Part shown: positions 2,981 through 41,930 of the stretch, in pieces
Layout: each line of letters starts with the position of its first letter
How positions within the stretch are numbered: position 1 is the first letter of the stretch
Source: a virus
Taxonomy: Duplodnaviria; Caudoviricetes
DNA length: 41,930 nucleotides
Direction: 5' to 3' (one strand)
IMG/VR virus record: IMGVR_UViG_3300031965_000068
Coordinates: 1 to 41,930 of that record
Translations under genes and position numbers: made by a program
The notes under the pieces: model-generated
The model's database searches: none
Seen by the model: only the letters and a program-made list of their open reading frames with translations
Told to the model about the DNA's origin: nothing

Positions 2981-3475
2981 GTGAGTGCATACATGGTCCC
3001 AAAGGGCCACATCGACGTCCTGGTCTCGGCAGCCCGCCAAGGTCGGGACCGTCTCCGGTGGTGGGATACCGACCCGGCTGTCCACGTCGCCAACGGGGAG
3101 ACGTTCAGCCTGGAATTCGTGCGGGAGCACATGCGGGAACTGACCGATGACAACCTCGGCCTGGTCGGAGCGATGCTGCTCAATGAGAACCGGCTGTCGG
3201 TCAACCACCGCTATCGCGAGGACGAGATCGAAGAGCCGTACCTGTTCCGGGAGACCGAGGGCTATCCACCCAAAGTGGTGCTGACGGCGATCTCCGGTTA
3301 CGAGTACCAGGCGTGCGAGCACCCCGGCTGGTTCACTTCGGAGGCTCGGCAGTTCTGCGAATCCCTGCGGGACAAGATGTGCGGGAAGCTTCGGGCAGAG
3401 GAAGGCTGGGAGATCGCCCGGCCCGCCTACCAGCGCGGGATCTCGATCCTGGATCTCGGAAAGGACAAGCGATGA
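2981..3475 (+). CDS. hypothetical phage protein
   Basis: GTG after AAAGGAG; YEYQACEHPGW motif. Confidence 0.75.
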   Translation: MSAYMVPKGHIDVLVSAARQGRDRLRWWDTDPAVHVANGETFSLEFVREHMRELTDDNLGLVGAMLLNENRLSVNHRYREDEIEEPYLFRETEGYPPKVVLTAISGYEYQACEHPGWFTSEARQFCESLRDKMCGKLRAEEGWEIARPAYQRGISILDLGKDKR

Positions 3476-3687
3476 GCATCCTGGTCATCCGCTGGTCATC
3501 CAGCAACAGCGAGCCGTGGGTCGTGGAGGACGTCAATGGCGATCAGCGGTCAGCCATAGAAGAACTCGCCGTCCAGTACGACCCGCACGCTCAGATCATC
3601 GACGACCACCCATTCTCTCCAGCCGACGCAATCGCGGCGCTGGAGGGACTCATGGAAGGAAGCACGCATGACACAGCTACCGATTGA
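3472..3687 (+). CDS. hypothetical protein
   Basis: ATGA overlap; SD AAGGA. Confidence 0.6.
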   Translation: MSILVIRWSSSNSEPWVVEDVNGDQRSAIEELAVQYDPHAQIIDDHPFSPADAIAALEGLMEGSTHDTATD

Positions 3688-4873
3688 GAAGGTCCAACCG
3701 GGGAACAACATTCGACATGCCCTGGGAGATCTCGGTCCCCTGGTCAAGTCGATCGAGGCGGTGGGCATCCTTGAGCCCTTGCTGGTGGTAGGGAACACCT
3801 CGGACGGCTGGACGGTGGTTGCCGGGCATCGGCGGCTGGCGGCGGCGAAGAAGGCCGGACTGACTGAGGTCCCGGCGTCGGTGGTGAACTTCACCGAGGC
3901 GGAGATCGCTGAGGCCATGCTGATCGAGAACCTCCAGCGGGAGGACCTCTCCCCGATCGAGGAAGCCGAGGGGCTGTTCCGGCTGGAGGAACTCGGGATC
4001 GCCCGGAAGGAGATCAGCCAGCGAACGGGGATCCCGCCCAAGCGGATCAAAGATCGAGTGCATCTGCTCGACCTCCCGAAGCCAGCGCAGAACCTCGTCC
4101 ACCAGGGCAAGCTGCCGATTGATGCCGGGCTACTCCTGGCCAACGAGCCGCCCGACGTCGTCCTCGCCATGATCGAGGAAGAGATCTCCGCTCGGGACAT
4201 CAAGTGGAGGCTGGAGCAGGTGCGACAGGAGCGCAAGAACGCCGACGCTATGGAGACCCTGGCCCCTCGGATCGAGAAGCTCCGTGAGGCCGGGGTGCCC
4301 GTGGTCGACAGACCCAAGTCATGGGAGCAGCCGGCCGGAACGGGAGGATGGGTTGAGATCGGCCAGGGCTGGTCGAAGCTCGACCTCCCGGTGCGGGAGC
4401 ACGCCAAAGAGCCATGCGCCGCCTACTGGCTGGACCCCGGCTCGGCTCATTCCCCGGCTCGGCTGATCCCCGCCTGTCAGAAGAAGAAGCGCCACTCCTT
4501 CACCGGAGACTCGGAGCTCAAGATCCCCGACGCCGAGAAGGACCACGCCGAGACCCAGGCGAAGAAGGCCCGCGCGGCAAAGGAACGAGCCAAGGCCCAG
4601 GAGCGAGAGGCCGTCTACTCGACGGTCGAGAACCTGCCTGCCGAGACGATCCAGTGGATGGTGCTCGGGTTCGCCGGGTACTCCGACCTGGCGGAAGCTG
4701 CGAAGCGGCTGGACCTGGAGACCGCCGATGCTCTGCTCGAGTACGCCGGGCAATCGAAGGCCAACCTGCGGCGGGCCGTGGTGGCGGTGGCCCTCGCTAC
4801 CGATCCTCTCGGATCAGATGGATGGGGCCACCGGGCCGCGGCAGTTAAGGCCCTTCGTGAGGCGATCCAGTGA
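3668..4873 (+). CDS. ParB/Spo0J-family protein with C-terminal extension
   Basis: GILEPLLV, VVAGHRRLAA, ENLQREDLSPIEEA, then HTH. Confidence 0.9.
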   Translation: MTQLPIEKVQPGNNIRHALGDLGPLVKSIEAVGILEPLLVVGNTSDGWTVVAGHRRLAAAKKAGLTEVPASVVNFTEAEIAEAMLIENLQREDLSPIEEAEGLFRLEELGIARKEISQRTGIPPKRIKDRVHLLDLPKPAQNLVHQGKLPIDAGLLLANEPPDVVLAMIEEEISARDIKWRLEQVRQERKNADAMETLAPRIEKLREAGVPVVDRPKSWEQPAGTGGWVEIGQGWSKLDLPVREHAKEPCAAYWLDPGSAHSPARLIPACQKKKRHSFTGDSELKIPDAEKDHAETQAKKARAAKERAKAQEREAVYSTVENLPAETIQWMVLGFAGYSDLAEAAKRLDLETADALLEYAGQSKANLRRAVVAVALATDPLGSDGWGHRAAAVKALREAIQ

Positions 4874-6620: not shown

Positions 6621-7451
6621 ATGTTCCCTCTCGACCTGATCGACGCCAACCCGAACCAGCCCCGCAAGCACTTCGACACCGAGGGGTTGCGGGAGTTGGC
6701 CGCTTCCATCGCCAAGCTCGGGATCCTCCAACCGATCGTCGTCCGGCCGGTGGGCGATCGCTTCACGATCGTCGCTGGGGAGCGCCGGTGGCGTGCGGCT
6801 CAGATGGCCGGACTCACCGAGATCCCGGTGGTCGAGATCTCCCCCGACATGGCCGAGGGCGACCAGTTCGTCCGCTCGGTGGCCGAGAACGTCAATCGCC
6901 GGGACATGACGGTGACGGAGGAAGCCCAGGCGTTCCAACGTCTGGTCGACTCGGGCATGACGATCGAGGAAGTGGCCGAGGTGCTGGGGAAGCGGCCCCA
7001 GGACATTCGGTGGCGTCTCGATCTCCTGGCCCTGGACCCGAAGCTCGAGGAACTGGCGAACCGATCCCCCGACCTGGCCTGGTTCGTTGCGAAGTTGGGG
7101 ATCGAAGATCAATGGCGAGTGTGGAGGGAGATCAACAACGGCATGGGAACCCAAGACGCAGTTGCATTCTGCGAGGCGCTGGCTGCGCCCCAGGACGAGA
7201 TGTTCGCCGAGTTCACCCTGACGGCCGAGGAAGTCAAGATCCGGGACCAGGTGGCCTCGGTCTGCGACCGGCTGGACAAGGCGATCGGAGCGATCCACGA
7301 TCTGATGGACGGCGACGACGGCCGGGTCGCTCAGATCCTGGCTGACCGGGCCTCGATCCTCACCGACCGCCTGGAGCTCGCGGCTAAGTCGGTCCGCACC
7401 GAGGCCAAGGCGGCTCGGCGAATCCTCGGGATCGTGCGGGCACGATCATGA
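6621..7451 (+). CDS. ParB/Spo0J-family protein
   Basis: NPNQPRKHF, GILQPIVV, IVAGERRWRAA, ENVNRRDM. Confidence 0.92.
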   Translation: MFPLDLIDANPNQPRKHFDTEGLRELAASIAKLGILQPIVVRPVGDRFTIVAGERRWRAAQMAGLTEIPVVEISPDMAEGDQFVRSVAENVNRRDMTVTEEAQAFQRLVDSGMTIEEVAEVLGKRPQDIRWRLDLLALDPKLEELANRSPDLAWFVAKLGIEDQWRVWREINNGMGTQDAVAFCEALAAPQDEMFAEFTLTAEEVKIRDQVASVCDRLDKAIGAIHDLMDGDDGRVAQILADRASILTDRLELAAKSVRTEAKAARRILGIVRARS

Positions 7452-8300: not shown

Positions 8301-8371
8301 GCGTGGGTAGTTCAGTGGTAGAACGCCTCGATTCCGTCGGGGAGGCCTGGGTTCGATCCCCGGCCCGCGCT
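8301..8371 (+). tRNA. tRNA-Gly(TCC), atypical anticodon loop, no encoded CCA
   Basis: Cloverleaf: GCGTGGG/CCCGCGC, GTTC/GAAC, CCTCG-ATTCCGT-CGGGG, AGGC, CTGGG-TTCGATC-CCCGG, discriminator T. Confidence 0.88.
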
Positions 8372-8373
8372 CG

Positions 8374-9711
8374 ATGTTCCGTGGCTCGATACCGCCGGCG
8401 ATGCAATCGCTGGTCGTCAAGACAATCGACGGGTGGGACGTAGACGAGATCTACGTCGGCGCGTCCGGCAACTTCACGATCGAGCGACTACTCGCCCCTC
8501 GAGGGCGACGCCTGTGGTCGAACGATGTGCAGATCTACTCCTGTGCTATCGGATGGCGGTTGGCCGGCCAGGACTTCCGCCTCGAGGTCCGCCCGGACTT
8601 TCAAGACGAGTGGGGCTGGCTAGCCGACTCGATGACGACGCCCACCGGGAAGCTGGCGACGATCATGCTCGCCTCGACCATGATGCAGGGAGCCGGGAGC
8701 GGCAACGCCTACTACTCCCGCATCCGAAGGGCCTACCGGGCCCAGTGGCCCCGGCTGTTCGCCGAGACGTGTCAGACCATCGACTCGGTCGGGGTGGAGC
8801 TCGCCGGGTTCCATGCCGGGGATTGCGTCGACTGGCTGACAGAGATCCCGGCAGATCAGGGGTTCGCAGTCTTTCCTCCGTTCTTCGCCGGCGACTACGA
8901 GGCCATGTTCCGAGGATTGGGCAAGGTGTTCGACTGGGACGAGCCGGAGTATCCGGAGTTCGACCACGAGCGGGCCGAGCTGATGATCGAGCGGATGCGA
9001 GGGATAAAGCGGTGGCTGTACGGGTCCAACGTGCGCTGGCCCCAACTGGAGGACCACCTGACCGGGATCGTGCAGACCACGAACCGCGGGGTGCCGATCT
9101 ATTGCTACGCCGACGACGGGCGACCTCGGGGAGTCGTCAGGCCCGCTCAGCACATCGACGCACTCCTGATCCCACACCTCGGCCCGGACGACGAGTTGGG
9201 CGAGGAACTCAACATCATCCCGCTTACCGACGGCCAATTCTCGCTTCTGCGGTCCCGGTACATGAACCGGCACATTCGCCCGGGCCAGGCGTCGGCGGCG
9301 TACGGGGTCCACGTCGACGGGATCCTGGTCGGCGCCTACGCGATCACCACGGCTCCAACCCTCGCCCATTACGAGCGGCACATGCCGACGCCCACGGTGT
9401 ATCTGCTCTCCGACTTCCCGGTCTCGGGCACCAGATACGACCGGCTCGCCAAACTGGTGCTCTACGCTGCGTTGTCGGAAGAGTCCAAGGCGCTGATCGA
9501 GTTGGTGGGGCGCAAGCGATTCAGATCCATGGCCACGACGGCCTTCACCGACAACCCGGTCTCGATGAAGTACCGAGGGGTGTTTCGACTCCTGAGCCGC
9601 AAGGACAGCACCGACCCCCTCTACCAGTATCAGTTGCAGTACGGACGAGAGCTGGGCCAGTGGAACCTGACAGAAGGGATGGACGAGTGGCGATGGAAGC
9701 ACTCGAAGTAG
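8374..9711 (+). CDS. phage adenine-MTase-like + GNAT(Mom)-like fusion, putative DNA modification/anti-restriction enzyme
   Basis: MFxGS start; YVGASGNF (motif I-like); FPPF (variant motif IV); C-terminal YLLSDF...RLAKL...TTAF...SMKYRG; next to ParB and TerS. Confidence 0.7.
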   Translation: MFRGSIPPAMQSLVVKTIDGWDVDEIYVGASGNFTIERLLAPRGRRLWSNDVQIYSCAIGWRLAGQDFRLEVRPDFQDEWGWLADSMTTPTGKLATIMLASTMMQGAGSGNAYYSRIRRAYRAQWPRLFAETCQTIDSVGVELAGFHAGDCVDWLTEIPADQGFAVFPPFFAGDYEAMFRGLGKVFDWDEPEYPEFDHERAELMIERMRGIKRWLYGSNVRWPQLEDHLTGIVQTTNRGVPIYCYADDGRPRGVVRPAQHIDALLIPHLGPDDELGEELNIIPLTDGQFSLLRSRYMNRHIRPGQASAAYGVHVDGILVGAYAITTAPTLAHYERHMPTPTVYLLSDFPVSGTRYDRLAKLVLYAALSEESKALIELVGRKRFRSMATTAFTDNPVSMKYRGVFRLLSRKDSTDPLYQYQLQYGRELGQWNLTEGMDEWRWKHSK

Positions 9712-10571
9712 GCGTCGAGCTGTGTCGGCTCGAGGATCTTCTGCCTCTGGAGCAGAACGCCCGATTCATGCGGCATGAGACCTTCCAGCAGTTGGTCGCC
9801 AATCTCAAGCGAGACGGCCGACTCACCTCCACCCCGTTTGTATGGCTCAACGAGGAACGGGGCGGGCTCGAGATCCTGTCGGGCAACCACCGGGTGGCGG
9901 CGGCGATCGAGGCGGGGATCGAGGAAGCCTGGTGCCTGGTGTGCCGGGAATACCTGTCGGAGGATCGGCGGATCGCCATTCAGTTGTCGCACAACGCCAT
10001 CGAAGGCGAGGACGACGCCTCGGTGCTCAAGTCGCTCTACCAGGCGATCGGTGACGTCGACCTTCGGCTCTACGCCGGGCTGGACGACGAGACGCTGCAC
10101 TTGCTGGAATCGGTGCAGCCGGCCTCGCTGTCGGAGGCCCGCTTGGACTTCGCCACCGTCTCGCTGGTCTTTCTCCCCGACGAGCTGGAAGAGGCGCAGA
10201 GGGTGTGGGGGACGGTCCGTTCGCTGATCGGCAACGTGGACGACGCATGGCTGGCGAGGTGGTCCGAGTACGACGACTGGCTGGACACGATCGAGACGGC
10301 CGGCTCTAGCCACGGGATCTCCAACACGGCAACGGCGGTGGCGATCGTCTTGGAGCTGGTACGCCGGAACCTGCCTCAACTCTCCGAGGGGTTCATGTCC
10401 GACCAGGCCCAGCAGCGGAATCCGTATGTTCCGATCGCGGCGGTGCTGGGAACGGACAAGATCCCCGCCCAGGTCGCCAAGCGCCTTCATGCTGCGGTCG
10501 AGCGTGCGATCCAGCAGGGGTCGGTCCCTGCGGACGAACGCTGGAAGATCCTCGACGGGCTCGATGGCTGA
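9693..10571 (+). CDS. ParB/Srx-like protein associated with the modification locus
   Basis: EQNARFM...ILSGNHRVAAA...QLSHNAIEG. Confidence 0.8.
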   Translation: MEALEVGVELCRLEDLLPLEQNARFMRHETFQQLVANLKRDGRLTSTPFVWLNEERGGLEILSGNHRVAAAIEAGIEEAWCLVCREYLSEDRRIAIQLSHNAIEGEDDASVLKSLYQAIGDVDLRLYAGLDDETLHLLESVQPASLSEARLDFATVSLVFLPDELEEAQRVWGTVRSLIGNVDDAWLARWSEYDDWLDTIETAGSSHGISNTATAVAIVLELVRRNLPQLSEGFMSDQAQQRNPYVPIAAVLGTDKIPAQVAKRLHAAVERAIQQGSVPADERWKILDGLDG

Positions 10572-11076
10572 CGCATGGGAGCAACGAGCTTCCGAATCGG
10601 GAGAGGCCTACGCCGCCTTCCTGGCCTACCGAGACCAGGGGCTCGGCAAGCGGTCCATCCGCGACCTCTCCCGACAACTCGGGAAGAGCCCGTCGCTGGT
10701 CGCACGCTGGTCATCGGACAACGGCTGGATGGAACGGGCGGCGTCATGGGACGCCCACCTGCAACGGGTCGTCCAAGCCGAGTTCGAGGAAGAGCTACGA
10801 GCGGCCGTCAAACGCCAGGCGCAGATGGCCGGCGTATTTCTGAACAAAGTGGTGCAGCGGCTGCAACAACTCGACCCGGCCGATCTCACGCCCTCTCAAA
10901 TGATCCAGTGGTTCGACGTCGCAGCCCGGGTGGAGAGGACCGCCTTCGGTCAGCCAGACATGGTGATAGAGGGGCGAATGGGCAACACCGAGCATTCCCC
11001 GATGGTGGATCCGGGCAGAGTCATCGAGATCCGGAAGTGGCTGGAGTTGACCGATGGAGACGCTGAGGAAGAGTGA
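10564..11076 (+). CDS. terS: terminase small subunit
   Basis: WEQ...ES..AY.AF..YRD.G..RS..HTH..RWS...W..RA..WD; directly upstream of TerL. Confidence 0.75.
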   Translation: MADAWEQRASESGEAYAAFLAYRDQGLGKRSIRDLSRQLGKSPSLVARWSSDNGWMERAASWDAHLQRVVQAEFEEELRAAVKRQAQMAGVFLNKVVQRLQQLDPADLTPSQMIQWFDVAARVERTAFGQPDMVIEGRMGNTEHSPMVDPGRVIEIRKWLELTDGDAEEE

Positions 11077-11824
11077 CCGGGCGGCGGTTCGCGCCCTTCT
11101 GATCTCCGAGCACCCGGCGGTGTACGCCGAAGAGAAGTTCGGATACATCAACGAGCCGTTCCACGAAGAGTGGTACGAGGCCGAGCTGGTCCATCCCCGA
11201 CTGTGCATCGTCGCCCCCCGGGAGTACGCCAAGAGCGAGGTGTTCTCGGTCAACTCGACATGCTGGTTCGGCGAGAGGTGGCCGGGCTCGCATCAGTGGA
11301 TCTTCGAGGACTCCCTGGAGCAGGGGAAGCTCATGCTTGAGCGGATCATCTCCGCCATGACCCAGGCCAACCCCGCCATGACCGATCGAATGTGGAAGGA
11401 AGAGAACACCGATGCCATCTTCTCCAACTTCTCCCGGGTCACTGTGGCGGGTAGGGGGCAACGGAAGCGAGGTGCTCGAGGCGACCGGATCGTGGGAGAC
11501 GACATTCTGGACGAGGAATCGACTCACACCCGGTATCAGCGAGCCAAGGTAGAGCGATGGTGGGACGGGACGGTGGCGAACATGGCCCACCCTGGCATGT
11601 ACCGGAGACTCGGCTGGGGCCACCTCAAGGGCGCCGGCGTGCCGATGCTGTGGTATCCGCCCACGACGATCCGTCTGGTCGGGACTCCCTTCCACCAGGC
11701 CGACGCTCTGATGCGGATGCGGAAGAACCGGCTCTACCACTTCCGGCGGTACGAGGCCGAGTTCGATGTAGCCGACCTCGTCCCCGGCACGATGGCCGTC
11801 GAGGTGCTCCCGCTGGTGGCGTGA
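11054..11824 (+). CDS. terL: terminase large subunit, ATPase domain (N-terminal half)
   Basis: Walker A-like APREYAKS; RG; Walker B IVGDD; motif III GTP. Confidence 0.85.
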   Translation: METLRKSDRAAVRALLISEHPAVYAEEKFGYINEPFHEEWYEAELVHPRLCIVAPREYAKSEVFSVNSTCWFGERWPGSHQWIFEDSLEQGKLMLERIISAMTQANPAMTDRMWKEENTDAIFSNFSRVTVAGRGQRKRGARGDRIVGDDILDEESTHTRYQRAKVERWWDGTVANMAHPGMYRRLGWGHLKGAGVPMLWYPPTTIRLVGTPFHQADALMRMRKNRLYHFRRYEAEFDVADLVPGTMAVEVLPLVA

Positions 11825-13472: not shown

Positions 13473-13565
13473 TCCGTTTCCCAGGGTTCTCTACCTCTCA
13501 CCCCTTGGCCGGGTATCGTTGCGCTCCAGACCTCTCGGACGCTCCGGGAGGGAAAGGAGCAGGAG

Positions 13566-13904
13566 ATGTACGTCAAGCTGATCGACCAGCGCGGGCCGAG
13601 TCGCATCTACCAGGCAGGCGGGGAGACTGTCGAGTCAGGATCGATCACCTGGCGGGGACCGGACCCATCGGAGGCGTCGCTGCAGGATCTTCTCGATCGG
13701 ATCGGATCTCACGCCGACGTCTATGACCGGACCCTGATCTCGCCTGATCCGGCCGGCTACGAGGACGGGGACCGGGATCGCCCGTTCTGGCTTCTGCGCT
13801 GGGCACGCTTCCAGCAGGTCGACGCGGACGCGATCCGGCTCGTCATCTGCTCCGGTCCGATCTTCGTGCTCGGCGACAACGGCAAGACGATCGACCGCGT
13901 CTGA
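13566..13904 (+). CDS. hypothetical phage protein
   Basis: SD AGGAG; C-terminal IFVLGDNGKTIDRV. Confidence 0.75.
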   Translation: MYVKLIDQRGPSRIYQAGGETVESGSITWRGPDPSEASLQDLLDRIGSHADVYDRTLISPDPAGYEDGDRDRPFWLLRWARFQQVDADAIRLVICSGPIFVLGDNGKTIDRV

Positions 13905-13958
13905 CCACCGAGGGGTGCTACCGTGCCGCTACCGCTCCGAACGTGGAAGGAGGCTGCG

Positions 13959-14198
13959 GTGGTAGAGGACGAAGGCGCACAAGAGGGCTTGCCCGGAGTG
14001 CCGCCGCCGAAGGATCTCGTCGAGGTCTCGTTCCTCGGTGCCAAGCAACTGGTCCAGTTCGCCGGCTACCGACTGGGTGACACCGTGAAGGTGGAGCTCG
14101 TCGGGCAGTTGGTGGAGGATGGGACCAGGCGCACCACCGAGAAGGGCAAGACGAAGTTCGCCAAGATTCAGGTGGACGCCGTTGAGATCATCGGCTGA
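13959..14198 (+). CDS. hypothetical protein
   Basis: SD AAGGAGG before GTG 13959; extended -10 TGCTACCGT at 13916. Confidence 0.65.
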   Translation: MVEDEGAQEGLPGVPPPKDLVEVSFLGAKQLVQFAGYRLGDTVKVELVGQLVEDGTRRTTEKGKTKFAKIQVDAVEIIG

Positions 14199-14208
14199 GA
14201 CGGTCGAG

Positions 14209-15183
14209 GTGGGGGAGGCCGGGGAACTGGCCCCTCCCACCCTGGCCGAGATCATCGCCTCGACTCGGGCTACATCGTGGGGGCCACGGAGCGGCCTATG
14301 GCCCACCCGCCGGCCACCGATCGCCCGCCAGATCTGCACTGACTGGATCGGCCAGTTGGGACGGGACGGCATGTGGTCGCTCCCCTGTGAGGAATGCTCG
14401 GAGCAGTCGGGATGCCTGGTGGCGAAGCGGAAGGAGGTCGGCCCGCTGATGTTCGACCAGGAGTTCCTGACCACCCCCCGGTCCTCGGCTTCCTCGATCT
14501 TCCCCCGGGAGCGCACCAAGAAGATGCTGCGCGCCGATCTCTCGTTCCTCACCTCGTTCACCCCCGACCAGCCCGGGCGCTTCGCCATCGTCAACGGCTG
14601 GGACATCGCCTGGTCGGAGCGGACGGGCGGCGACTACCTGGCGAAGATCTCGACGTACTACGACCGGGCGACCCGGAAGCGGCGATTCCTCGACATCTCC
14701 CGCTGGCAGGCGCTCACATTCCGCCAGCAGGTCGAGCTGATCCGCCAGGAACACCGGCTTTACTCGGCCAACCTGTCCGTGATCGAGGAAGCCGGCGCTC
14801 AGTCGGTGTGGACCCAGGAGGTGAAGGCCACCGGTGCCGAGGTCCACGACGAGCGAACTGCGGAGCTGATGGCTGCGCTCTCCGAGGTGAAGGTGCTGGG
14901 CCATGAGGCCTCCGACAAGCGATCGCTGGCCAAGGGCGTCCCCTCGCTGCTACTCGATCTCGAGCGGGAGGCGTGGGAGCTTCCATTCCAGGAGGGCACC
15001 TATCACCACGAAGAGGCCGAGAACTTCCTGGTGGAGCTGGAGGCGTTCGGCTGGAACGATGACAAGCTGGAAGGGGTCGGGGAACACGACGACACGGTGA
15101 TGGCCTGGTGGCACAACTCATGGGGCCTCGAGCAGCACGTCGGCCAGCGGACCACGATGTCGGTTCCGGGAGGACAGATCTGA
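14209..15183 (+). CDS. terL: terminase large subunit, nuclease domain (C-terminal half); start uncertain
   Basis: LWP...F.QEF linker; GWDIA...D; IEE; HDDTVMA RNase H-like motifs. Confidence 0.82.
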   Translation: MGEAGELAPPTLAEIIASTRATSWGPRSGLWPTRRPPIARQICTDWIGQLGRDGMWSLPCEECSEQSGCLVAKRKEVGPLMFDQEFLTTPRSSASSIFPRERTKKMLRADLSFLTSFTPDQPGRFAIVNGWDIAWSERTGGDYLAKISTYYDRATRKRRFLDISRWQALTFRQQVELIRQEHRLYSANLSVIEEAGAQSVWTQEVKATGAEVHDERTAELMAALSEVKVLGHEASDKRSLAKGVPSLLLDLEREAWELPFQEGTYHHEEAENFLVELEAFGWNDDKLEGVGEHDDTVMAWWHNSWGLEQHVGQRTTMSVPGGQI

Positions 15184-15323
15184 TGGGCTGAGGCGGGAAG
15201 AAGCAAGGCCGGTCGGTCGAGCAGAAGCAAGCAGAAGCGGAACGGGTGCGCCTGGCGGCGGAGAGACGTCGGGCTCGACTGGAGCGGAGCCGTCAGATGG
15301 CGGCGGAGAGGAAGAAGAGATGA
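15183..15323 (+). CDS. 46 aa basic protein with in-frame TGA at codon 3 (candidate selenoprotein or pseudogene)
   Basis: SD GGAGG; TGATG and ATGA coupling; ATG GGC TGA GGC GGG AAG AAG; bSECIS-like hairpin 15203-15222. Confidence 0.5.
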
Positions 15324-15523
15324 ACGAGGTGAGTTTCCTACTGATGGAGGCGAGCGCCCGAACTAACGCGACGGTCGCCCAGTTGTCGGAGGCTCTGAAC
15401 CAGGCGACCCCCGCCGTCATAGAGATGCTGGAGGTCGCCGCCGATCAGGGGATCAAGGGACGGCGTGCGGGTGAAGCGATCGCCCACCTGATTCGCTCCA
15501 TCGACCGGGGTGAGATCCGATGA
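15320..15523 (+). CDS. small protein homologous to tape-measure core
   Basis: ADQGIKGRRAGEAI vs TMP ADQGIKGQRAGEAI. Confidence 0.7.
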   Translation: MNEVSFLLMEASARTNATVAQLSEALNQATPAVIEMLEVAADQGIKGRRAGEAIAHLIRSIDRGEIR

Positions 15524-15669
15524 CCCGACCCGACTATGTGGTGGTTCTCTGGATCGGGTTCCTGTCAATCGTCCTGGTGCTGGATCTCGGCGGCTCCCCG
15601 GTCGGTGCCTTGGCTCTGGCGATCCTGGTCGTCTCGGCGGTGTGGCTGGCGGCGCGGGTGCGGCCATGA
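15520..15669 (+). CDS. 49 aa two-TM membrane protein
   Basis: ATGA overlaps at both ends; two hydrophobic helices. Confidence 0.6.
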   Translation: MTRPDYVVVLWIGFLSIVLVLDLGGSPVGALALAILVVSAVWLAARVRP

Positions 15670-16067
15670 CTCCGCTCGAGTGGATCTTGGCAACGCTGGT
15701 CTCATTCCGCCTGACCCGCCTCGTCTCGGAGGACTTCCCCCCAATCAAGGCCGGACGTGACTGGCTGCTCCGGCGCTGGCCCGGCCCCGACACGACGTTC
15801 CCGACGAACGAGGTGGACGTGGTGCGGGGCGAGGTCGGGGACGAGTACCGGCATGTCGAGACCGGCGTTCCGTTGATGGAGGTCGAGATGGTGTTCTTCG
15901 CCGAGCGGCCTCACTGGTTGGGCCAGTTGATCGAGTGCTACTGGTGCCACGGGTTCTGGATCTCGGTGGCGGTGCTCCCGGTGTTCGGTCCGACCTGGTT
16001 CGAGTGGGCGGTGGGAGCACTGGCGGTGAATGGGCTGATCGGGCTACTCCGATCCTGGGAGGGATGA
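15666..16067 (+). CDS. DUF1360-like membrane protein
   Basis: FRLTRLV.ED...R...LIECYWCHGFW. Confidence 0.7.
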   Translation: MTPLEWILATLVSFRLTRLVSEDFPPIKAGRDWLLRRWPGPDTTFPTNEVDVVRGEVGDEYRHVETGVPLMEVEMVFFAERPHWLGQLIECYWCHGFWISVAVLPVFGPTWFEWAVGALAVNGLIGLLRSWEG

Positions 16068-16207
16068 TGTGTCCGCATGGGGATCTGACGTGTCCCTGCC
16101 AGGACGGCGATCCCTGCCACTACGTCACCGTGGGTGACTCGCCGGCGATGCGTTGCCCCCGCTCGGGGGCGATCGACTGTCATTCCTGCCCTCCTGAGTC
16201 TCGGTAG
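16064..16207 (+). CDS. small Cys-rich protein
   Basis: CPH...CPCQDGDPCHY. Confidence 0.55.
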   Translation: MMCPHGDLTCPCQDGDPCHYVTVGDSPAMRCPRSGAIDCHSCPPESR

Positions 16208-16210: not shown

Positions 16211-16284
16211 CCGCCGGAGCTCGCATAGCGACCCGGAAGGCATAGCCCGTGCAGGTGGGACGTCACCTCGCAGCCCGGAGCGGA

Positions 16285-18528
16285 ATGACCGCATCCGCCA
16301 CCCGACTGCGTATCCAGCAAGGCCAGATCGAGACCCCTCCGACGAGGGAATGGCAGAAGCAGAACTGGGCGGTCGCCCGTCGTGTCGGCGAGATCCGATA
16401 CACGATGGCGTTCCTCCGCTATGCGATCACCAAGGCCAGGTTCGGGGTCGCCCTCCGGGCCCGGTCCGGCGACGAGCCGGAGATGCTCGACGACGGACCC
16501 GCAGTCGAGCTCCTGGACCGGATCGACTCACGCTCGATCGGTCTGCCCTACCTGTTCGGGTCGTGGGGGATCCACTGGCAGACGGTCGGCGAGACCCACC
16601 TGCTCTGCCAGCACCCGGACTCCGAGGACGAGGTGTGGTCCCTTCGGTCCACCGAGGAAGTGCGCCGGCTAAACGCCCAGCAGCAGGTGTGGAACGGGGA
16701 TGCCTTCGAGTCTCTCGGCGAGGACGATCTGATCTGGCGGTCCTGGCGACCGGACGAGGAACGGGCCGACCTGCCCGACGCTCCCCTGACGTCGGTGCGG
16801 GAGGAAGCCGAGGATCTCCTGTTGCTGACCTCGCAGATCCGGGCGGCGAACCAGTCTCGGTTGAGCGCCGGAATGCTGCTCGTCCCCCAGGAGCTCACCA
16901 TCCTCCCCTTGCGGACCGACGACGACGACCAGGACCCGGAGCTGTTCGACAAGTGGGACGAGGACGCATTCTCGAAGAACCTCGCCACGGCCATGACTAC
17001 CCCGATCAAGGACGCCAAGTCGGCCCTGCGGGTGGTGCCGATCGTGATTCGCGGTCCGGGCGACCGCCTCGATCAACTGAGGTGGATCACCTTCGACCGT
17101 CCGATCGACGCCCAGGCGGCGGGGGAACGATCCGAGCTGATCTCCCGCATCGCCTCCGGGCTGGACATGCCTCAGTCGATCATCGAGGGCCGGGGCGACA
17201 TGAACCACTGGACCGCCTGGCTGGAGGACGAATCGACGTACAAGCAGCACATCGACCCAGTGCTGTTGGAGATGATGAACTCGTTCACCCGAGGGGTGTT
17301 CCAGCCACTACTCCGGGAGATGGGAGAGGCTCGCTGGCGGGACCTGATCGTGTGGCGGGATCTCTCGTCCCTGGTCCACCATCCCGACCGGCTACAGGAT
17401 GCGATCCTGCTGTACGACCGGAAGGAGCTGTCCGGGGAGGCGCTGCGCCGTATCGGTGGTTTCAACGACACCGACGTCCCCACCGAAGAAGAGATCGCCA
17501 AGCGGCGGGAAGCTCAGCCGGAGTCGCCGGACGACGGAGGCGCTGAGGACGGGGCAGAGGTGGACGAGGGCACTCCCGACTCCCCGAACCCCGCCCAGGC
17601 GGCTGCCACCATTCTCGGGCGACGTCGAAGGTTGACGACGGCCCGTGTCGCTTCGGCGGGGGAGACGATCCGCAGGCGGCAGACGATCGGCAGGCGGCTG
17701 GCGACGATCGACCTGTCCACCGTCACCCGGCTCACTCAGTTGTGGGACGACGCCGTGGATCGTGCGCTGGAGCGGGCGGGGGCTCGGGTACGGACCAAGT
17801 CCCGGAAGTTCACGACGATGCAGTCCCTGATCGACGGGGTGCCGAATCAGATGGTGGTACGGACGCTGGGCGACCAGTTCTCCCGGCTGGGCCTGGAAGA
17901 GGGCGACCTGATCGACGAGGACTCCTTCTCGGAGACGGTCGCCGCCACCGTGGTCATGCTCACCGCAGCCCGGAGGGCGGCCGCTGAGGAAGTGCTGGAG
18001 CTGGAGGACGTCGACGACCTGGACGACTGGGATGCCTGGAACGAGCAGGAGGGCCAGCGGGAAGCGGAGGCCGGCTCGGCTCTACTCGAGACGGCCATCA
18101 TCGCCTACGCCCTGTCCCGGCTATTCGGTCGGGACGGGGGCCGAGAGAACGTTCTGCGAGGCGAGGGCTCCCGGAGGAAGTTCCCCACCTCGGCGGTGTG
18201 GGCGGCCATGACCAGGGCCGGCGGCGGGACCGTCTCCACTCCCGACGTCGACCACGTCCGGGGGATCGGCAACGGGCCGTGGGTGCAGGAGCGGCTGCGC
18301 GAGGCCGGCTTTGTGACTGCCCGGAACCGCTGGATCTACGGCGACCCCGGCCTGCGGGAAACGAACTTCGATCCCCACCGGCGGATAGACGGAGTGCTGT
18401 TCCAGGGATGGGACGACCCCAGCCTCGCCACCCCGTCGGCTGGATCGTGGATCGGCGAGTCGTTCATGTATCCGGGCGACCACGCCGGGTGCCTCTGCAC
18501 CTGGGAGAGGGAGCTGATCGCCGAGTGA
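16285..18528 (+). CDS. portal protein with C-terminal MuF-like domain
   Basis: Position after terminase; GxLLVP, R.A.GLD.P, NHW.AW motifs; C-terminal YPGDH.GC.C. Confidence 0.8.
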   Translation: MTASATRLRIQQGQIETPPTREWQKQNWAVARRVGEIRYTMAFLRYAITKARFGVALRARSGDEPEMLDDGPAVELLDRIDSRSIGLPYLFGSWGIHWQTVGETHLLCQHPDSEDEVWSLRSTEEVRRLNAQQQVWNGDAFESLGEDDLIWRSWRPDEERADLPDAPLTSVREEAEDLLLLTSQIRAANQSRLSAGMLLVPQELTILPLRTDDDDQDPELFDKWDEDAFSKNLATAMTTPIKDAKSALRVVPIVIRGPGDRLDQLRWITFDRPIDAQAAGERSELISRIASGLDMPQSIIEGRGDMNHWTAWLEDESTYKQHIDPVLLEMMNSFTRGVFQPLLREMGEARWRDLIVWRDLSSLVHHPDRLQDAILLYDRKELSGEALRRIGGFNDTDVPTEEEIAKRREAQPESPDDGGAEDGAEVDEGTPDSPNPAQAAATILGRRRRLTTARVASAGETIRRRQTIGRRLATIDLSTVTRLTQLWDDAVDRALERAGARVRTKSRKFTTMQSLIDGVPNQMVVRTLGDQFSRLGLEEGDLIDEDSFSETVAATVVMLTAARRAAAEEVLELEDVDDLDDWDAWNEQEGQREAEAGSALLETAIIAYALSRLFGRDGGRENVLRGEGSRRKFPTSAVWAAMTRAGGGTVSTPDVDHVRGIGNGPWVQERLREAGFVTARNRWIYGDPGLRETNFDPHRRIDGVLFQGWDDPSLATPSAGSWIGESFMYPGDHAGCLCTWERELIAE

Positions 18529-19769: not shown

Positions 19770-19800
19770 TCTGGCCTCTGACCGGATCCATCTACCAGTC

Positions 19801-19842
19801 CGCAGAAAGCCCCCTACCCCCGTTCGGGGCTTTCTGCGTTTC
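19801..19842 (+). terminator. intrinsic terminator
   Basis: CGCAGAAAGCCCC/GGGGCTTTCTGCG followed by TTTC. Confidence 0.75.
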
Positions 19843-19858
19843 TGAGTAGCGGTACGGT
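19843..19858 (+). promoter_or_regulatory. late-type promoter (major capsid)
   Basis: TGAG-TAGC-GGTACGGT. Confidence 0.7.
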
Positions 19859-19931
19859 TCCGACAGACCAAGGGTGAGCGCATAGCGCCGGCAGGGTCGC
19901 ATCCATTCCGTTCTGACCAGGAGACCATGAG

Positions 19932-21581
19932 ATGAACCCCGAAGAGATCCTCGAAGCCCTCGCAGCCGAGAGTATCGACATTGCCGACCTCACCGTCGAA
20001 CAGCTCCAGGAGCTACGGACCCACCTCCGGGCCGGCCTCCAGGAGATGCGGGGCGAACTCGACGAAGCCGAGGATCGTGCCGCCCACCTCGAGCAGATGC
20101 AGGCGCATCGGACCCTGTACGACGCGGTTGCGGCCCAGCTCGCCACCGCCACCGAGCAGGCCGAGACGCTGGAGCAGACCGCCGATGCCCTGGCTTCCTT
20201 CGACGACACCCCCGAGGAAGAATCGACCGAAGAGACGGAGGAAGAAGAGCCCGCCGACGAGTCGATGGAAGAGGAAGAAGAGCCGGCCCGAACGGCTTCC
20301 CTCTCCGAGCTCGCCCGCCGGCGCTCCCGCCGGTCCGGTACCTCGACCGAGGTCCGGGACGAGGTGGAGCCGCTCAACCCAATCGAGGCGCTCCCCGGCC
20401 TCAACTCGTTCTCGGTGGGACACCGATTCGAGTCGGCGCTGGCCGTCGCCTCCGCCATGGCAGATCGCTACGGGCAGATCGCTCCCAAGCCCGGGCAGAA
20501 GGTGGACTACGCCCGCTTCGCGGTGGGCCGGTCCCGGCAGGAGCATCGATTCAACCTGACGGACTCGGCGGAAGAGAACCACCGCACCCTGCGAGAGCTC
20601 AACGAGATCCTGCGGGAGACGGACAACGCCCGAGTGGCATCGGGTGGTCCCTGCGCCCCGGCCGAGGTCATGTACGACTTCTACCGGATCGACACCCGGT
20701 CGGGTGTCCTGACCCTGCCGACGGTGGGTCTCCCCCGTGGTCGGGTCCAGTTGCCGACCTCCCCCTCGATTCAGGACGTGCTGGGTCAGACGGGGATCGC
20801 CACCGAGTGGACGATCGAGAACGACACCGACCCGTCGGATCCGGCAACCAAGCCGTGTATCACCGTCACCTGTCCCGAGTTCGGGACGTTCCAGGTGTCG
20901 GCGTGGGTGACGTGCCGTCAGTACGGCAACTTCGGCGCCCGGTTCTACCCGGAGAACGTGGCGAACTTCGACTCGCTCACCCTGGTCGCCCACGATCACG
21001 ACGTGTCTGCCGCCCTGATTGCAGACGTGGTGGCCCTCGCCACCGCCCATGTGGTCGGCGGGAACGGCGGAGGCGCATGGACCGAGTTCACCGACGCCCT
21101 GTCCTTCGAGTCGACGTGGTATCGGTCGAAGTACCGGATGGACCCCTCGGCCCGTCTGGAAGTCCTCGCTCCCCTGTGGGTGCGAGCGGCCGTCGCCCAG
21201 GACATCATCAACCGCAACTCGACGGTGTCGTTCGCCAACGCCCTCCAGCAGGTCGATGCCTGGCTGGCGGCGGCGAACCTGTCGGTGCAGTGGCTGTACA
21301 ACTGGCAGAACATCGAGGACTCGGGCATCTGGCCCGCCGATGCGGACTTCGTGCTGTTCGCCCCTGGAACCTTCCTGCGGGCAGACGCCGGCACTCTCGA
21401 CCTCGGTGTGGTGCGCGACTCGACCCTCAACTCCACGAACGACTACCAGAACTTCGTGGAGACGTTCGAGGGGATCGTCATGCCGGGCCATGAGGCTCTG
21501 TCCATCACCGGAGTCCCGACGTGCCCGACGGGTAACGCCGCCGGCTACCGGGTCGACGAGCTGGTCTGCGCCGCCTCGTAA
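19932..21581 (+). CDS. major capsid protein (hexamer-type) with acidic N-terminal scaffold region
   Basis: Acidic coiled coil; ASGG.CAP.E..YD; LDLGVVRDSTLN.TNDY..F.E.FE. Confidence 0.85.
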   Translation: MNPEEILEALAAESIDIADLTVEQLQELRTHLRAGLQEMRGELDEAEDRAAHLEQMQAHRTLYDAVAAQLATATEQAETLEQTADALASFDDTPEEESTEETEEEEPADESMEEEEEPARTASLSELARRRSRRSGTSTEVRDEVEPLNPIEALPGLNSFSVGHRFESALAVASAMADRYGQIAPKPGQKVDYARFAVGRSRQEHRFNLTDSAEENHRTLRELNEILRETDNARVASGGPCAPAEVMYDFYRIDTRSGVLTLPTVGLPRGRVQLPTSPSIQDVLGQTGIATEWTIENDTDPSDPATKPCITVTCPEFGTFQVSAWVTCRQYGNFGARFYPENVANFDSLTLVAHDHDVSAALIADVVALATAHVVGGNGGGAWTEFTDALSFESTWYRSKYRMDPSARLEVLAPLWVRAAVAQDIINRNSTVSFANALQQVDAWLAAANLSVQWLYNWQNIEDSGIWPADADFVLFAPGTFLRADAGTLDLGVVRDSTLNSTNDYQNFVETFEGIVMPGHEALSITGVPTCPTGNAAGYRVDELVCAAS

Positions 21582-24052: not shown

Positions 24053-24376
24053 ATGGCCTCCAACCGCTTCGCCAAGTTCTCCGAGATCTACGACGGCAAC
24101 CCCTCCGACCCCCGGGCCAGCGTCCTGTGGGACGCCGACCACCAGGTCGACGAACTGGCCGGCCAACTCGAGCGTGAGTTGGTTCGCCTCCAGGACAAGG
24201 CCGCTCGGGTCCTGGACATTCTCGGCACCAACGAAGCCGAGGAAGCCGAGCCCTCGTACATGCTCAACGAACTGGGCGAGTTCCAGGGGATCGATCCCGA
24301 CAAGACCATCTCCGCTCTGCATACTGCGGTCCAGTACCGTCAGACGATCGCACGGCTGATCGAGAAGGGTGCCTGA
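24053..24376 (+). CDS. hypothetical protein
   Basis: SD GAAGGAG. Confidence 0.7.
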   Translation: MASNRFAKFSEIYDGNPSDPRASVLWDADHQVDELAGQLERELVRLQDKAARVLDILGTNEAEEAEPSYMLNELGEFQGIDPDKTISALHTAVQYRQTIARLIEKGA

Positions 24377-24400
24377 GCCCGTCACAGCCCCCACAAGCTC

Positions 24401-24445
24401 CGAACCCCCGCCAGGCCCTCCCAGCCCCCACTCGGCGGGGGTTCG
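24401..24445 (+). terminator. 12-bp hairpin, probable terminator
   Basis: CGAACCCCCGCC/GGCGGGGGTTCG. Confidence 0.6.
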
Positions 24446-24536
24446 GTCGTTCCTGGGACGAATGGTGGGGTCTCCTGCCACGCTGGCCGCTATCACCCTG
24501 GTAGGGTTTCGCTACCACGACAGAAGGAATAGGGCT

Positions 24537-24899
24537 GTGGTCGATATCCCGTCCCCCACCACCGAGCAGGCGCGCACCGAGGCGATCGTGTCCTCGCTGG
24601 TCAATCATCCCCCGGTGGACGATCGGATCGTGCAGCGGTTCGAGGTCATCCGAGGGGCTGCGATCGAGCTCGCCCATGAGATCCTGCTGCAGGCGCCTAA
24701 CTGCCGGGAGCGCTCGACGGCCCTATCCCGTCTCGAGGAAACCGTCATGTGGTCGATCAAGGCGATCGCTCTGCACCAGGCGGCGATCCTGAATGCCGAA
24801 GGGCTCCACGCCGGCTGTCATGAGATCCCGTCGACGGACTTCTCCGATCGGGCCTGGGAGGTCAACTCCGACTGCAGTCTGCCGCACCCGGTCGGCTGA
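24537..24899 (+). CDS. Acb2/Tad1-like helical hairpin protein (putative nucleotide-signal sponge)
   Basis: H.P...IR...[23 protein letters not shown]. Confidence 0.6.
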
Positions 24900-41214: not shown

Positions 41215-41930
41215 ATGAGTCTGATCATGATGGAATCCTGCGACCTGCCGAGTGTGGCAGGCGCCAAATGGGATCTGATCACGACGACCAACTTCGCGCA
41301 GACCGTCGACTCCCGGACCTGTTGGACGATCGCGGACAGCCGGGATGAGGGGCTCCGCAAGAACTTCGCCGCCCAAGAGGATGACACGATCATCCTCGGG
41401 TTCCGTCACTACAAGACGGGGCTCTCCGCCACCAACAATGCCGGGTCGATCATGTCGTTCTGGGGTGACGGCGGGACAGTGCTGCATCTCACCGTCGAAA
41501 CACCCAACTCGGACGGGTCGATCGACGTGCGACGGGCCGGCACCACCATCCTCGGCACGTCGGCGGCGGGTGTCCTGTCGCTGATCGGAGCCTGGCAGTA
41601 CATCGAAGTGAAGGTGCTGATATCCGACACGGTCGGCACCGTCGACGTGGTGGTGGATGGTGTGAACGTGCTGTCTCTGACCAACCAGGACACCCGCAAC
41701 GGGGGGACAGACGCTCTCATCGATCAAGTACGGATCGGATCTCAGAACACCGCCAACAACGCGGCCACCGCCGTCCGCGACATTGTGATCATGAACGAGC
41801 AAGGGTCGTCACTCAACGACTTTCTCGGACCGGTCATTGTTGAGGCTCGTCTGGCGGACGGGGCGGGTGACAACACTGATTGGACTCCGAACACCGGGGC
41901 GAACTTCCAGGCGGTGGACGATCCGGGGGC
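41215..41930 (+). CDS. minor tail/virion protein, lectin-like beta sandwich (partial, runs off the window)
   Basis: ATG after GGAGG; open frame; W.YIEVK...G.V.V.VDG; DFLG. Confidence 0.65.
   Translation, partial: MSLIMMESCDLPSVAGAKWDLITTTNFAQTVDSRTCWTIADSRDEGLRKNFAAQEDDTIILGFRHYKTGLSATNNAGSIMSFWGDGGTVLHLTVETPNSDGSIDVRRAGTTILGTSAAGVLSLIGAWQYIEVKVLISDTVGTVDVVVDGVNVLSLTNQDTRNGGTDALIDQVRIGSQNTANNAATAVRDIVIMNEQGSSLNDFLGPVIVEARLADGAGDNTDWTPNTGANFQAVDDPG

Follow-up and report, generated by a model that had tools for sequence, protein, structure and literature searches.

An in-frame UGA at codon 3 marks a candidate selenoprotein gene in the head module of a tailed phage

The window (the whole stretch of 41,930 nucleotides that was analyzed, from IMG/VR record IMGVR_UViG_3300031965_000068) is a partial tailed-phage genome with a GC content of 66%; its main features are collected in Table 1. 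Between the gene for the nuclease half of the terminase large subunit (TerL-C) and the next small gene lies a short frame whose ATG (15183-15185) overlaps the TerL-C stop TGA (15181-15183) and whose own stop TGA (15321-15323) overlaps the next start codon. The neighboring genes overlap by 1 to 4 nt, so that this frame occupies the sole large gap. An earlier note had described a gap-filling frame with a Shine-Dalgarno (SD) site, overlaps at both ends, and a single TGA interruption; all of these were found in the sequence, and the peptide was identical to the one that the note had read. The TGA at codon 3 is the sole stop before 43 sense codons. One criterion for a bacterial selenoprotein gene is a UGA lying within a frame that is intact and translatable in all other respects, and the candidate shows this.

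Table 1. Coordinates of the candidate gene, its signals, and other features of the window
Feature	Position	Strand	Remarks
tRNA-Gly(TCC)	8301-8372	+	ARAGORN, Rfam-confirmed
TerL-C, phrog_31692	14119-15183	+	real start probably later
Shine-Dalgarno GGGAGG	15168-15173	+	9-nt spacer to ATG; within TerL-C 3' end
Candidate selenoprotein gene	15183-15323	+	46 codons; M-G-U-G-G-K-K and a basic helix
In-frame TGA	15189-15191	+	codon 3; candidate Sec codon
SECIS-like hairpin	15203-15222	+	C-GGUC-G loop at 15211-15214
Next small gene	15320-15523	+	ATGA-coupled to candidate
DUF1360 / phrog_781 gene	15666-16067	+	usual companion of this portal type
Portal gene, phrog_776	16249-18528	+	
Gap between head protease and major capsid genes	19770-19931		no M-x-C gene
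Major capsid protein gene, phrog_777	19932-21581	+	Rosebush-type actinophage lineage
tRNA-Tyr	41371-41445	-	ARAGORN only

The portal and capsid proteins matched 877 isolate records each, and the organism groups listed were all actinophages. One contig in the portal's 90% cluster (P0122) is 54,339 bases long; the window therefore probably holds part of a genome, and there is a longer near relative. The terminase is split into an ATPase gene (11054-11824) and the nuclease gene (14119-15183), with RusA and small genes in between, an annotation already present in Arthrobacter phages KellEzio and DanielleIgnace. Directly 5' of the portal gene lies a Cys/His-rich 46-codon ORF (16067-16207; 8 Cys) with a good SD site; its codon score is low, and it may be a partner for a Cys/Sec tag. 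The block from the capsid gene to the head-tail adaptor genes includes an Acb2/Tad1 hairpin-domain gene (24369-24899; PF24729, above cut-off), which likely encodes an anti-defense nucleotide sponge, as well as DUF5131, methyltransferase-like, and hexapeptide transferase genes. A DAM-like-phage1 and phage GNAT fusion (8374-9711) overlaps a long ORF that carries a ParB/methyltransferase-like part in another frame, and there are two more ParB-like genes (coordinates given for the group: 3668-4873, 6621-7451, and 8433-10571).

Read through, the candidate frame gives a product of 46 residues (16 K/R and 6 D/E; pI, about 11.6), predicted from the single sequence to fold as a loose 11-residue N-terminal arm and one helix spanning residues 12 to 45 (mean pLDDT, 89). 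The read-through frame had the best codon score of the six frames (-2.4 bits versus -8.7 to -28.5), and its per-codon score of -0.13 bits was under those of four of the five neighboring small genes (0.35 to 0.44). The reality of the TGA, which the earlier note had wanted secured against sequence error, was judged by comparing contigs. Run X1, which may be the source, showed 0 differences over 13500-15349, and a 232-nt contig of run X2, from another study, showed 0 differences from 14988-15219 at a depth of 3.65 and reached 28 letters past the TGA, where the bridging rule is 31 letters. The contigs of both studies carry the TGA, and as far as they show it is not an assembly slip. A reading of TGAGG as the SD site of a later start was rejected for the window, in which no ATG, GTG, or TTG closely follows the TGA; that reading does account for two other loci, L127 and L128.

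The hairpin starts 11 nt past the UGA and folds as the earlier note had described, with a 2-bp lower stem, a 2-by-2 internal loop, and a 4-bp upper stem that includes one G-U pair. The resemblance to Escherichia coli fdhF that had been pointed out there was borne out on the fdhF record: the stem starts at +12 in both, and the GGUC loop follows after 18 nt in fdhF and 19 nt in the window. The stem proved as weak as had been suspected, its upper part being 4 bp long versus 6 to 10 bp in 36 of 40 genuine SECIS elements, which argues against Sec. The folding energy was -6.4 kcal/mol alone and -10.2 kcal/mol with flanks, a stability that was not unusual against dinucleotide shuffles (z, -1.07 and -0.13). 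The closing-pair probability was about 0.001 in folds of longer mRNA and reached 0.96 only in local folds that lacked the upstream region; the competing long-mRNA folds partly pair the hairpin with the AUG/UGA region.

The rules for bacterial SECIS elements set out in Fig 2 of PMC13188914 are a loop of 3 to 9 nt, an upper stem of 4 to 16 bp, a G in the first two loop positions, a spacing of 16 to 37 nt, and a minimum free energy of at most -7.5. The test applied here was our own coding of the rules in that figure, not bSECISearch. The window hairpin, whose stem is the shortest that the rules allow, passed the strict form whichever of the three fold lengths was used, which speaks for Sec. Among the positive controls, E. 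coli fdhF passed, as did 40 of 40 FdhA/SelD Sec genes in the loose form and 39 of 40 in the strict form; these genes came from the phylum of G001, taken as Actinomycetota, and the count leaves out a spurious motif row (L584) as well as four loci from unpublished genomes. The loose and strict forms were also passed by 7 and 3 of 23 Cys-type phage genes and by 6 and 2 of 15 Cys forms of FdhA/SelD. Synonymous recodings of the window peptide passed the loose form in 20 to 24% of cases (72/300 and 101/500) and the strict form in 11 to 13% (38/300 and 56/500), and both rates count against Sec. A hairpin of at least 4 bp with a GGU[CU] loop at 16 to 37 nt followed only 4 of the 501 plus-strand TGAs in the window, the candidate included, in favor of Sec; such a hairpin arose in 1744 of 20000 synonymous recodings. 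By our own estimate the hairpin lends modest support, with a likelihood ratio of roughly 8- to 18-fold for this gene.

The decoding background was mixed. SelB was detected in 137 of the 201 genomes sampled from the likely host phylum (129 of 193 once 8 genomes flagged as unpublished, which enter no other claim, are set aside), which favors Sec; sampling was even across the group, and the figure is no host prediction. A tRNA-Sec gene was not found in the window, G004, or G005, and this weighs against Sec. UGA terminates 23 of 36 long ORFs and is the phage's main stop, so there has been no whole-genome code change; UGA-stop avoidance, many interrupted genes, and a suppressor tRNA, the marks of genome-wide UGA reassignment, were not found.

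Viral contigs, metagenomes (47 of 64 parts), and genomes were scanned at the DNA level for M-G-stop-G-G-K, and three of the scans themselves demanded the M-G-x-G-G-K start. The distinct matches, mostly chance, numbered 53 for TGA, 35 for TAA, and 29 for TAG, and 22, 7, and 8 of them, respectively, had an SD-like site and at least 40 open codons. By inspection, three TGA matches were gap-filling genes in virion modules, and none of the 15 TAA and TAG matches with an SD site and an open frame resembled such a gene, neighbors having been inspected for some of them. Counting TGA against TAA and TAG was rejected as a test, for chance matches dominate. Gracilibacteria read UGA as Gly. A mechanical gene filter passed 2 TGA, 1 TAA, and 0 TAG matches and did not set the three stops apart; it kept a Gracilibacteria match, dropped two of the three inspected genes, L002 and L005, and is blind to the difference between one-step nonsense and Sec. 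In genome contigs there were 54 motif matches, none of them gene-like, so no lysogen host was identified. The window's own contig (L234) was excluded. A further gene, starting M-G-TGA-G-G-K-C and carrying two zinc-ribbon motifs of the CxxC type, fills the gap behind a sigma-factor gene on a phage-like contig (L244; reverse strand, 3012-3218); it failed the SECIS test, has an internal Met, and was dropped from the counts.

The three genes, each with an SD site and an M-G-TGA-G-G-K start in a phage head or virion module, speak for Sec. In L002, an SD site and M-G-TGA-G-G-K-K-K begin an open 63-codon frame that lies exactly between the protease (phrog_859) and capsid (phrog_777) genes of the lineage to which the window belongs. 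Its product matched phrog_2069 at an E value of 8e-4 and DUF7196 at 0.0046, below cut-off; the TGA lines up with the invariant first Cys that isolates have in their DUF7196-like pre-capsid proteins, and the capsid protein of L002 had the top score against that of the window among the loci compared (35%). The gene in L005 has 96 codons, with a capsid-like gene upstream and a DUF1360-like gene downstream. The gene in L243 has 89 codons and lies in a head-tail region before head-tail-like genes, neighbors for which profile searches gave no firm family match. A pairing by eye of L243 with the Cys gene L513 was unsupported (BLASTP E value, 0.43; not among the best matches). The bodies of the four TGA genes, including that of the window, showed no detectable mutual relation; what they share is the N-terminal start, and a second Cys is absent from all four.

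In the SECIS test the window and L243 passed the strict form, L005 passed the loose form only, and L002 failed, which counts against the Sec reading. The loop lies 19 nt from the UGA in the window, 20 nt in L005, and 21 nt in L243. A loop at 17 to 22 nt, a range picked post hoc, was found in 3 of 4 UGA genes versus 1 of 23 Cys genes (Fisher P = 0.005), or 2 of 3 without the window gene (P = 0.027); 31 of 40 genuine Sec genes fall inside this range, as do 21 of 500 recodings in the null of the window peptide. Over the published range of 16 to 37 nt, the contrast was not significant in either the loose form (3/4 versus 7/23; P = 0.13) or the strict form (2/4 versus 3/23; P = 0.14). At 3072-3091, about 70 nt past the UGA of L002 (3007-3009) and behind a long intervening hairpin, lies an 8-bp hairpin whose loop is C-GGUC-G; spotted post hoc, it is the only plus-strand hairpin so strong in the 53-kb record. 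It may be a distant SECIS element that the hairpin in between brings close; for bacteria, such a SECIS layout would be new.

The 46-residue body had no homologue in a word search of 5.8 billion proteins or in a phmmer search of 1.84 billion representatives, which counts against Sec, and no match was obtained by tblastn or blastn of isolate phages, in Pfam, PHROGs, or NCBIfam, or among solved structures. A homologue with TGC, TGT, or TGA at codon 3, the check that the earlier note had proposed, was thus not found for this protein by tblastn or the other searches, and the link to a Cys class therefore rests on 6 to 7 N-terminal residues and position. That note's suggestion that Cys is plausible at codon 3, drawn from small basic proteins of actinophage head modules, gained support from isolates of the head lineage and from the TGA in three other contigs; a direct Cys homologue was not found. 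In favor of Sec, 6 of 7 actinophage isolates of the lineage (Rosebush, Tank, Barb, Rudy, Hendrix, and NoodlelyBoi, with Sixama the exception) have, between the head protease and capsid genes, a small gene whose product starts M-(x)-C-x-C. Rosebush gp14 belongs to DUF7196 (PF23826) / phrog_2069, and its positional equivalents are Tank gp19, Barb gp20, Rudy gp22, Hendrix gp56, and NoodlelyBoi gp25. The window has no M-x-C gene at that place.

A scan for an SD site followed by M[GA]CGG in 33 of 64 parts gave 120 stretches, including 17 distinct long C-G-G-C genes and many Lys-rich peptides of 9 to 20 residues. Among 18 hand-picked M[AG]CGG loci, the neighbors were head or packaging genes in 8, tail genes in 2, RusA in 2, thymidylate synthase in 1, and none in 5; two of the genes (L445 and L499) lie between TerL and portal genes, as does the window candidate. 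The corresponding scan for M[GA]-TGA-G-G through the whole collection, with Lys at position 6 optional, gave 38 stretches, one of them gene-like, namely, L002. Short M[AG]CGG peptides of 9 to 20 residues with Lys/Gly tails and strong SD sites were seen in many phage contigs (among them L016, L031, L048, L060, L069, L443, L461, L480, L481, L502, and L507), several adjoining terminase or portal genes, and are missed by gene callers because they are too short. Relatives of TerL-C in viral contigs occupied 54 loci with other head modules, none of which had an M-G-[C/UGA]-G-G-K gene; the closest relatives (P0003 to P0009) were 48 to 74% identical. Capsid-family searches of 401 and 301 genomes yielded three satellite-like elements and one contig that lacked the small gene, and their SelA (3 of 4) was no more informative than the base rate. 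The three elements (L577, L578, and L579, in G145, G057, and G387) are small and chromosomal, with a lone phrog_777-type capsid gene and no portal or protease gene.

We infer, with a probability of roughly 0.65, that the codon-3 UGA is read as Sec by host SelB and tRNA-Sec, guided by the weak GGUC hairpin. It is rather unlikely that the frame is instead a gene broken by a change of TGC or TGT to TGA, or a Met-Gly minigene that relays ribosomes, with a chance hairpin. The TGA is one substitution away from both Cys codons, the hairpin is weak and often passes under the null, the per-codon score is low relative to four neighbors, and there is no body homologue in which purifying selection could be revealed. 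Set against this, the stop recurs at the identical codon in three virion-module genes with SD sites and frames intact, and the scan without the demand for Lys-6 returned as its single gene-like match again an M-G-TGA-G-G-K start. A long M-A-TGA-G-G-C gene, the form expected if the commonest long Cys genes broke, was not seen in that scan; the rough frequency of about 1 TGA gene per 30 to 80 distinct Cys genes appears to exceed what one-codon nonsense would give; a dead 130-nt spacer would be odd in an operon with overlaps of 1 to 4 nt; and the TGA is present in contigs of two studies.

Read-through of the UGA as another amino acid, either by leaky Trp or Cys insertion or by a SECIS-dependent Cys tRNA, to set a small amount of protein, strikes us as improbable. 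It would suit L002, which has no standard SECIS element, and L005, which passes the loose form only. Sec-like minor Cys tRNAs read UGA. Such species exist, and they are mentioned in the available part of PMC5389517. Against such read-through, the window loop is a canonical GGUC near the fdhF distance, the sole confirmed tRNA of the window, tRNA-Gly(TCC), is no UGA reader, and in the scans, judged by eye, no gene-like M-G-W-G-G-K small head protein was noticed. The remaining proposals, that the hairpin serves the TerL-C stop, that UGA is recoded generally, or that the TGA is a sequence error, are very improbable and largely refuted: the TerL-C UGA does lie 27 nt before the loop, inside the 16- to 37-nt range, but the read-through frame of TerL-C scores poorly on codons and homologues of TerL-C stop at a similar point, most long ORFs end in UGA, and contigs of two studies have the TGA.

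Under Sec insertion, ribosomes arriving from TerL-C, or initiating at the SD site, would cover the SD/AUG/UGA region and so free the hairpin; SelB would then insert Sec in some rounds, and in the others a Met-Gly dipeptide would be set free. The full-length protein would be a selenium version of a widespread set of small proteins from phage head modules, in which variable basic bodies follow an M-[GA]-C-G-G or an M-[GA]-C-x-C start. Met removal is expected with Gly at position 2 and would leave the Cys or Sec at the extreme N terminus. From position and charge only, we would guess, doubtfully, that the Sec replaces a CxC/CxxC pair as a metal ligand or an S/Se cross-link anchor in head assembly and that the helix binds DNA. 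Tentatively, and at less than even odds, several phage lineages may have swapped an N-terminal Cys tag for Sec, creating a virus-specific class of selenoproteins that are built into or required for the virion and tie assembly to selenium. The feature is real and the gene a good but unproven candidate for a selenoprotein, which would be a variant of bacterial Sec recoding that involves no new mechanism.

If the Sec reading is true, phages tap host Sec decoding and use Sec nonenzymatically at a protein N terminus. Such genes would be wholly missed by gene callers because no start codon follows the UGA. The candidate also offers a way into the M-[GA]-C-G-G class of small phage proteins, which is widespread and unstudied. 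To our knowledge, the bacterial selenoproteins described so far are encoded by cells, and most of them are redox enzymes. Among the 119 selenoprotein families in Table 1 of PMC13188914, none is said to be a phage head protein, and none shows an M-G-U-G-G-K start; the word "phage" occurs 0 times in the main text of that paper, and the accessible text of PMC13326102 does not mention phage or virus. No phage-encoded selenoprotein was found in the open-licence PMC and bioRxiv literature, supplements aside, in which the only viral selenoproteins in print were poxvirus peroxidases. According to the available part of PMC10747093, three huge phages have tRNA-Sec genes; no selenoprotein is named there. 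In PMC7150772, as far as its accessible text goes, just the four darkest bands of the Rosebush virion gel were examined, and it is therefore silent on gp14 in the virion.

Several known systems resemble the candidate in part. It shares with the bacterial SECIS/SelB system, as in E. coli fdhF, an in-frame UGA, a stem 11 nt on, a GGUC loop, and an energy below -7.5 kcal/mol with flanks; it differs in having an upper stem of just 4 bp, a Sec at codon 3 right after initiation, and a product that is phage-borne and nonenzymatic. Proteins of DUF7196/phrog_2069 come from the same portal and capsid lineage and are likewise small and basic with a Cys at residue 2 to 4 after M-G or M-A, and the relative in L002 connects this family to TGA. 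In contrast, the window protein has no Pfam, PHROG, or NCBIfam profile match and one predicted helix, its gene follows TerL-C rather than preceding the capsid gene, and it has a single U with no second Cys or CxC; by profile, the candidate is not a DUF7196 member. Genome-wide stop recoding in phages also places a stop codon within a late gene, whereas here UGA is the main stop, there is no suppressor tRNA, and one site only is affected. Poxvirus selenoproteins, which are glutathione peroxidases, provide a precedent for a virus gene that uses host Sec decoding; according to the available part of PMC8310308, they are enzymes captured from eukaryotes, and their SECIS elements are eukaryotic as well, whereas the candidate would be a virus-specific head-module protein in a bacterial host.
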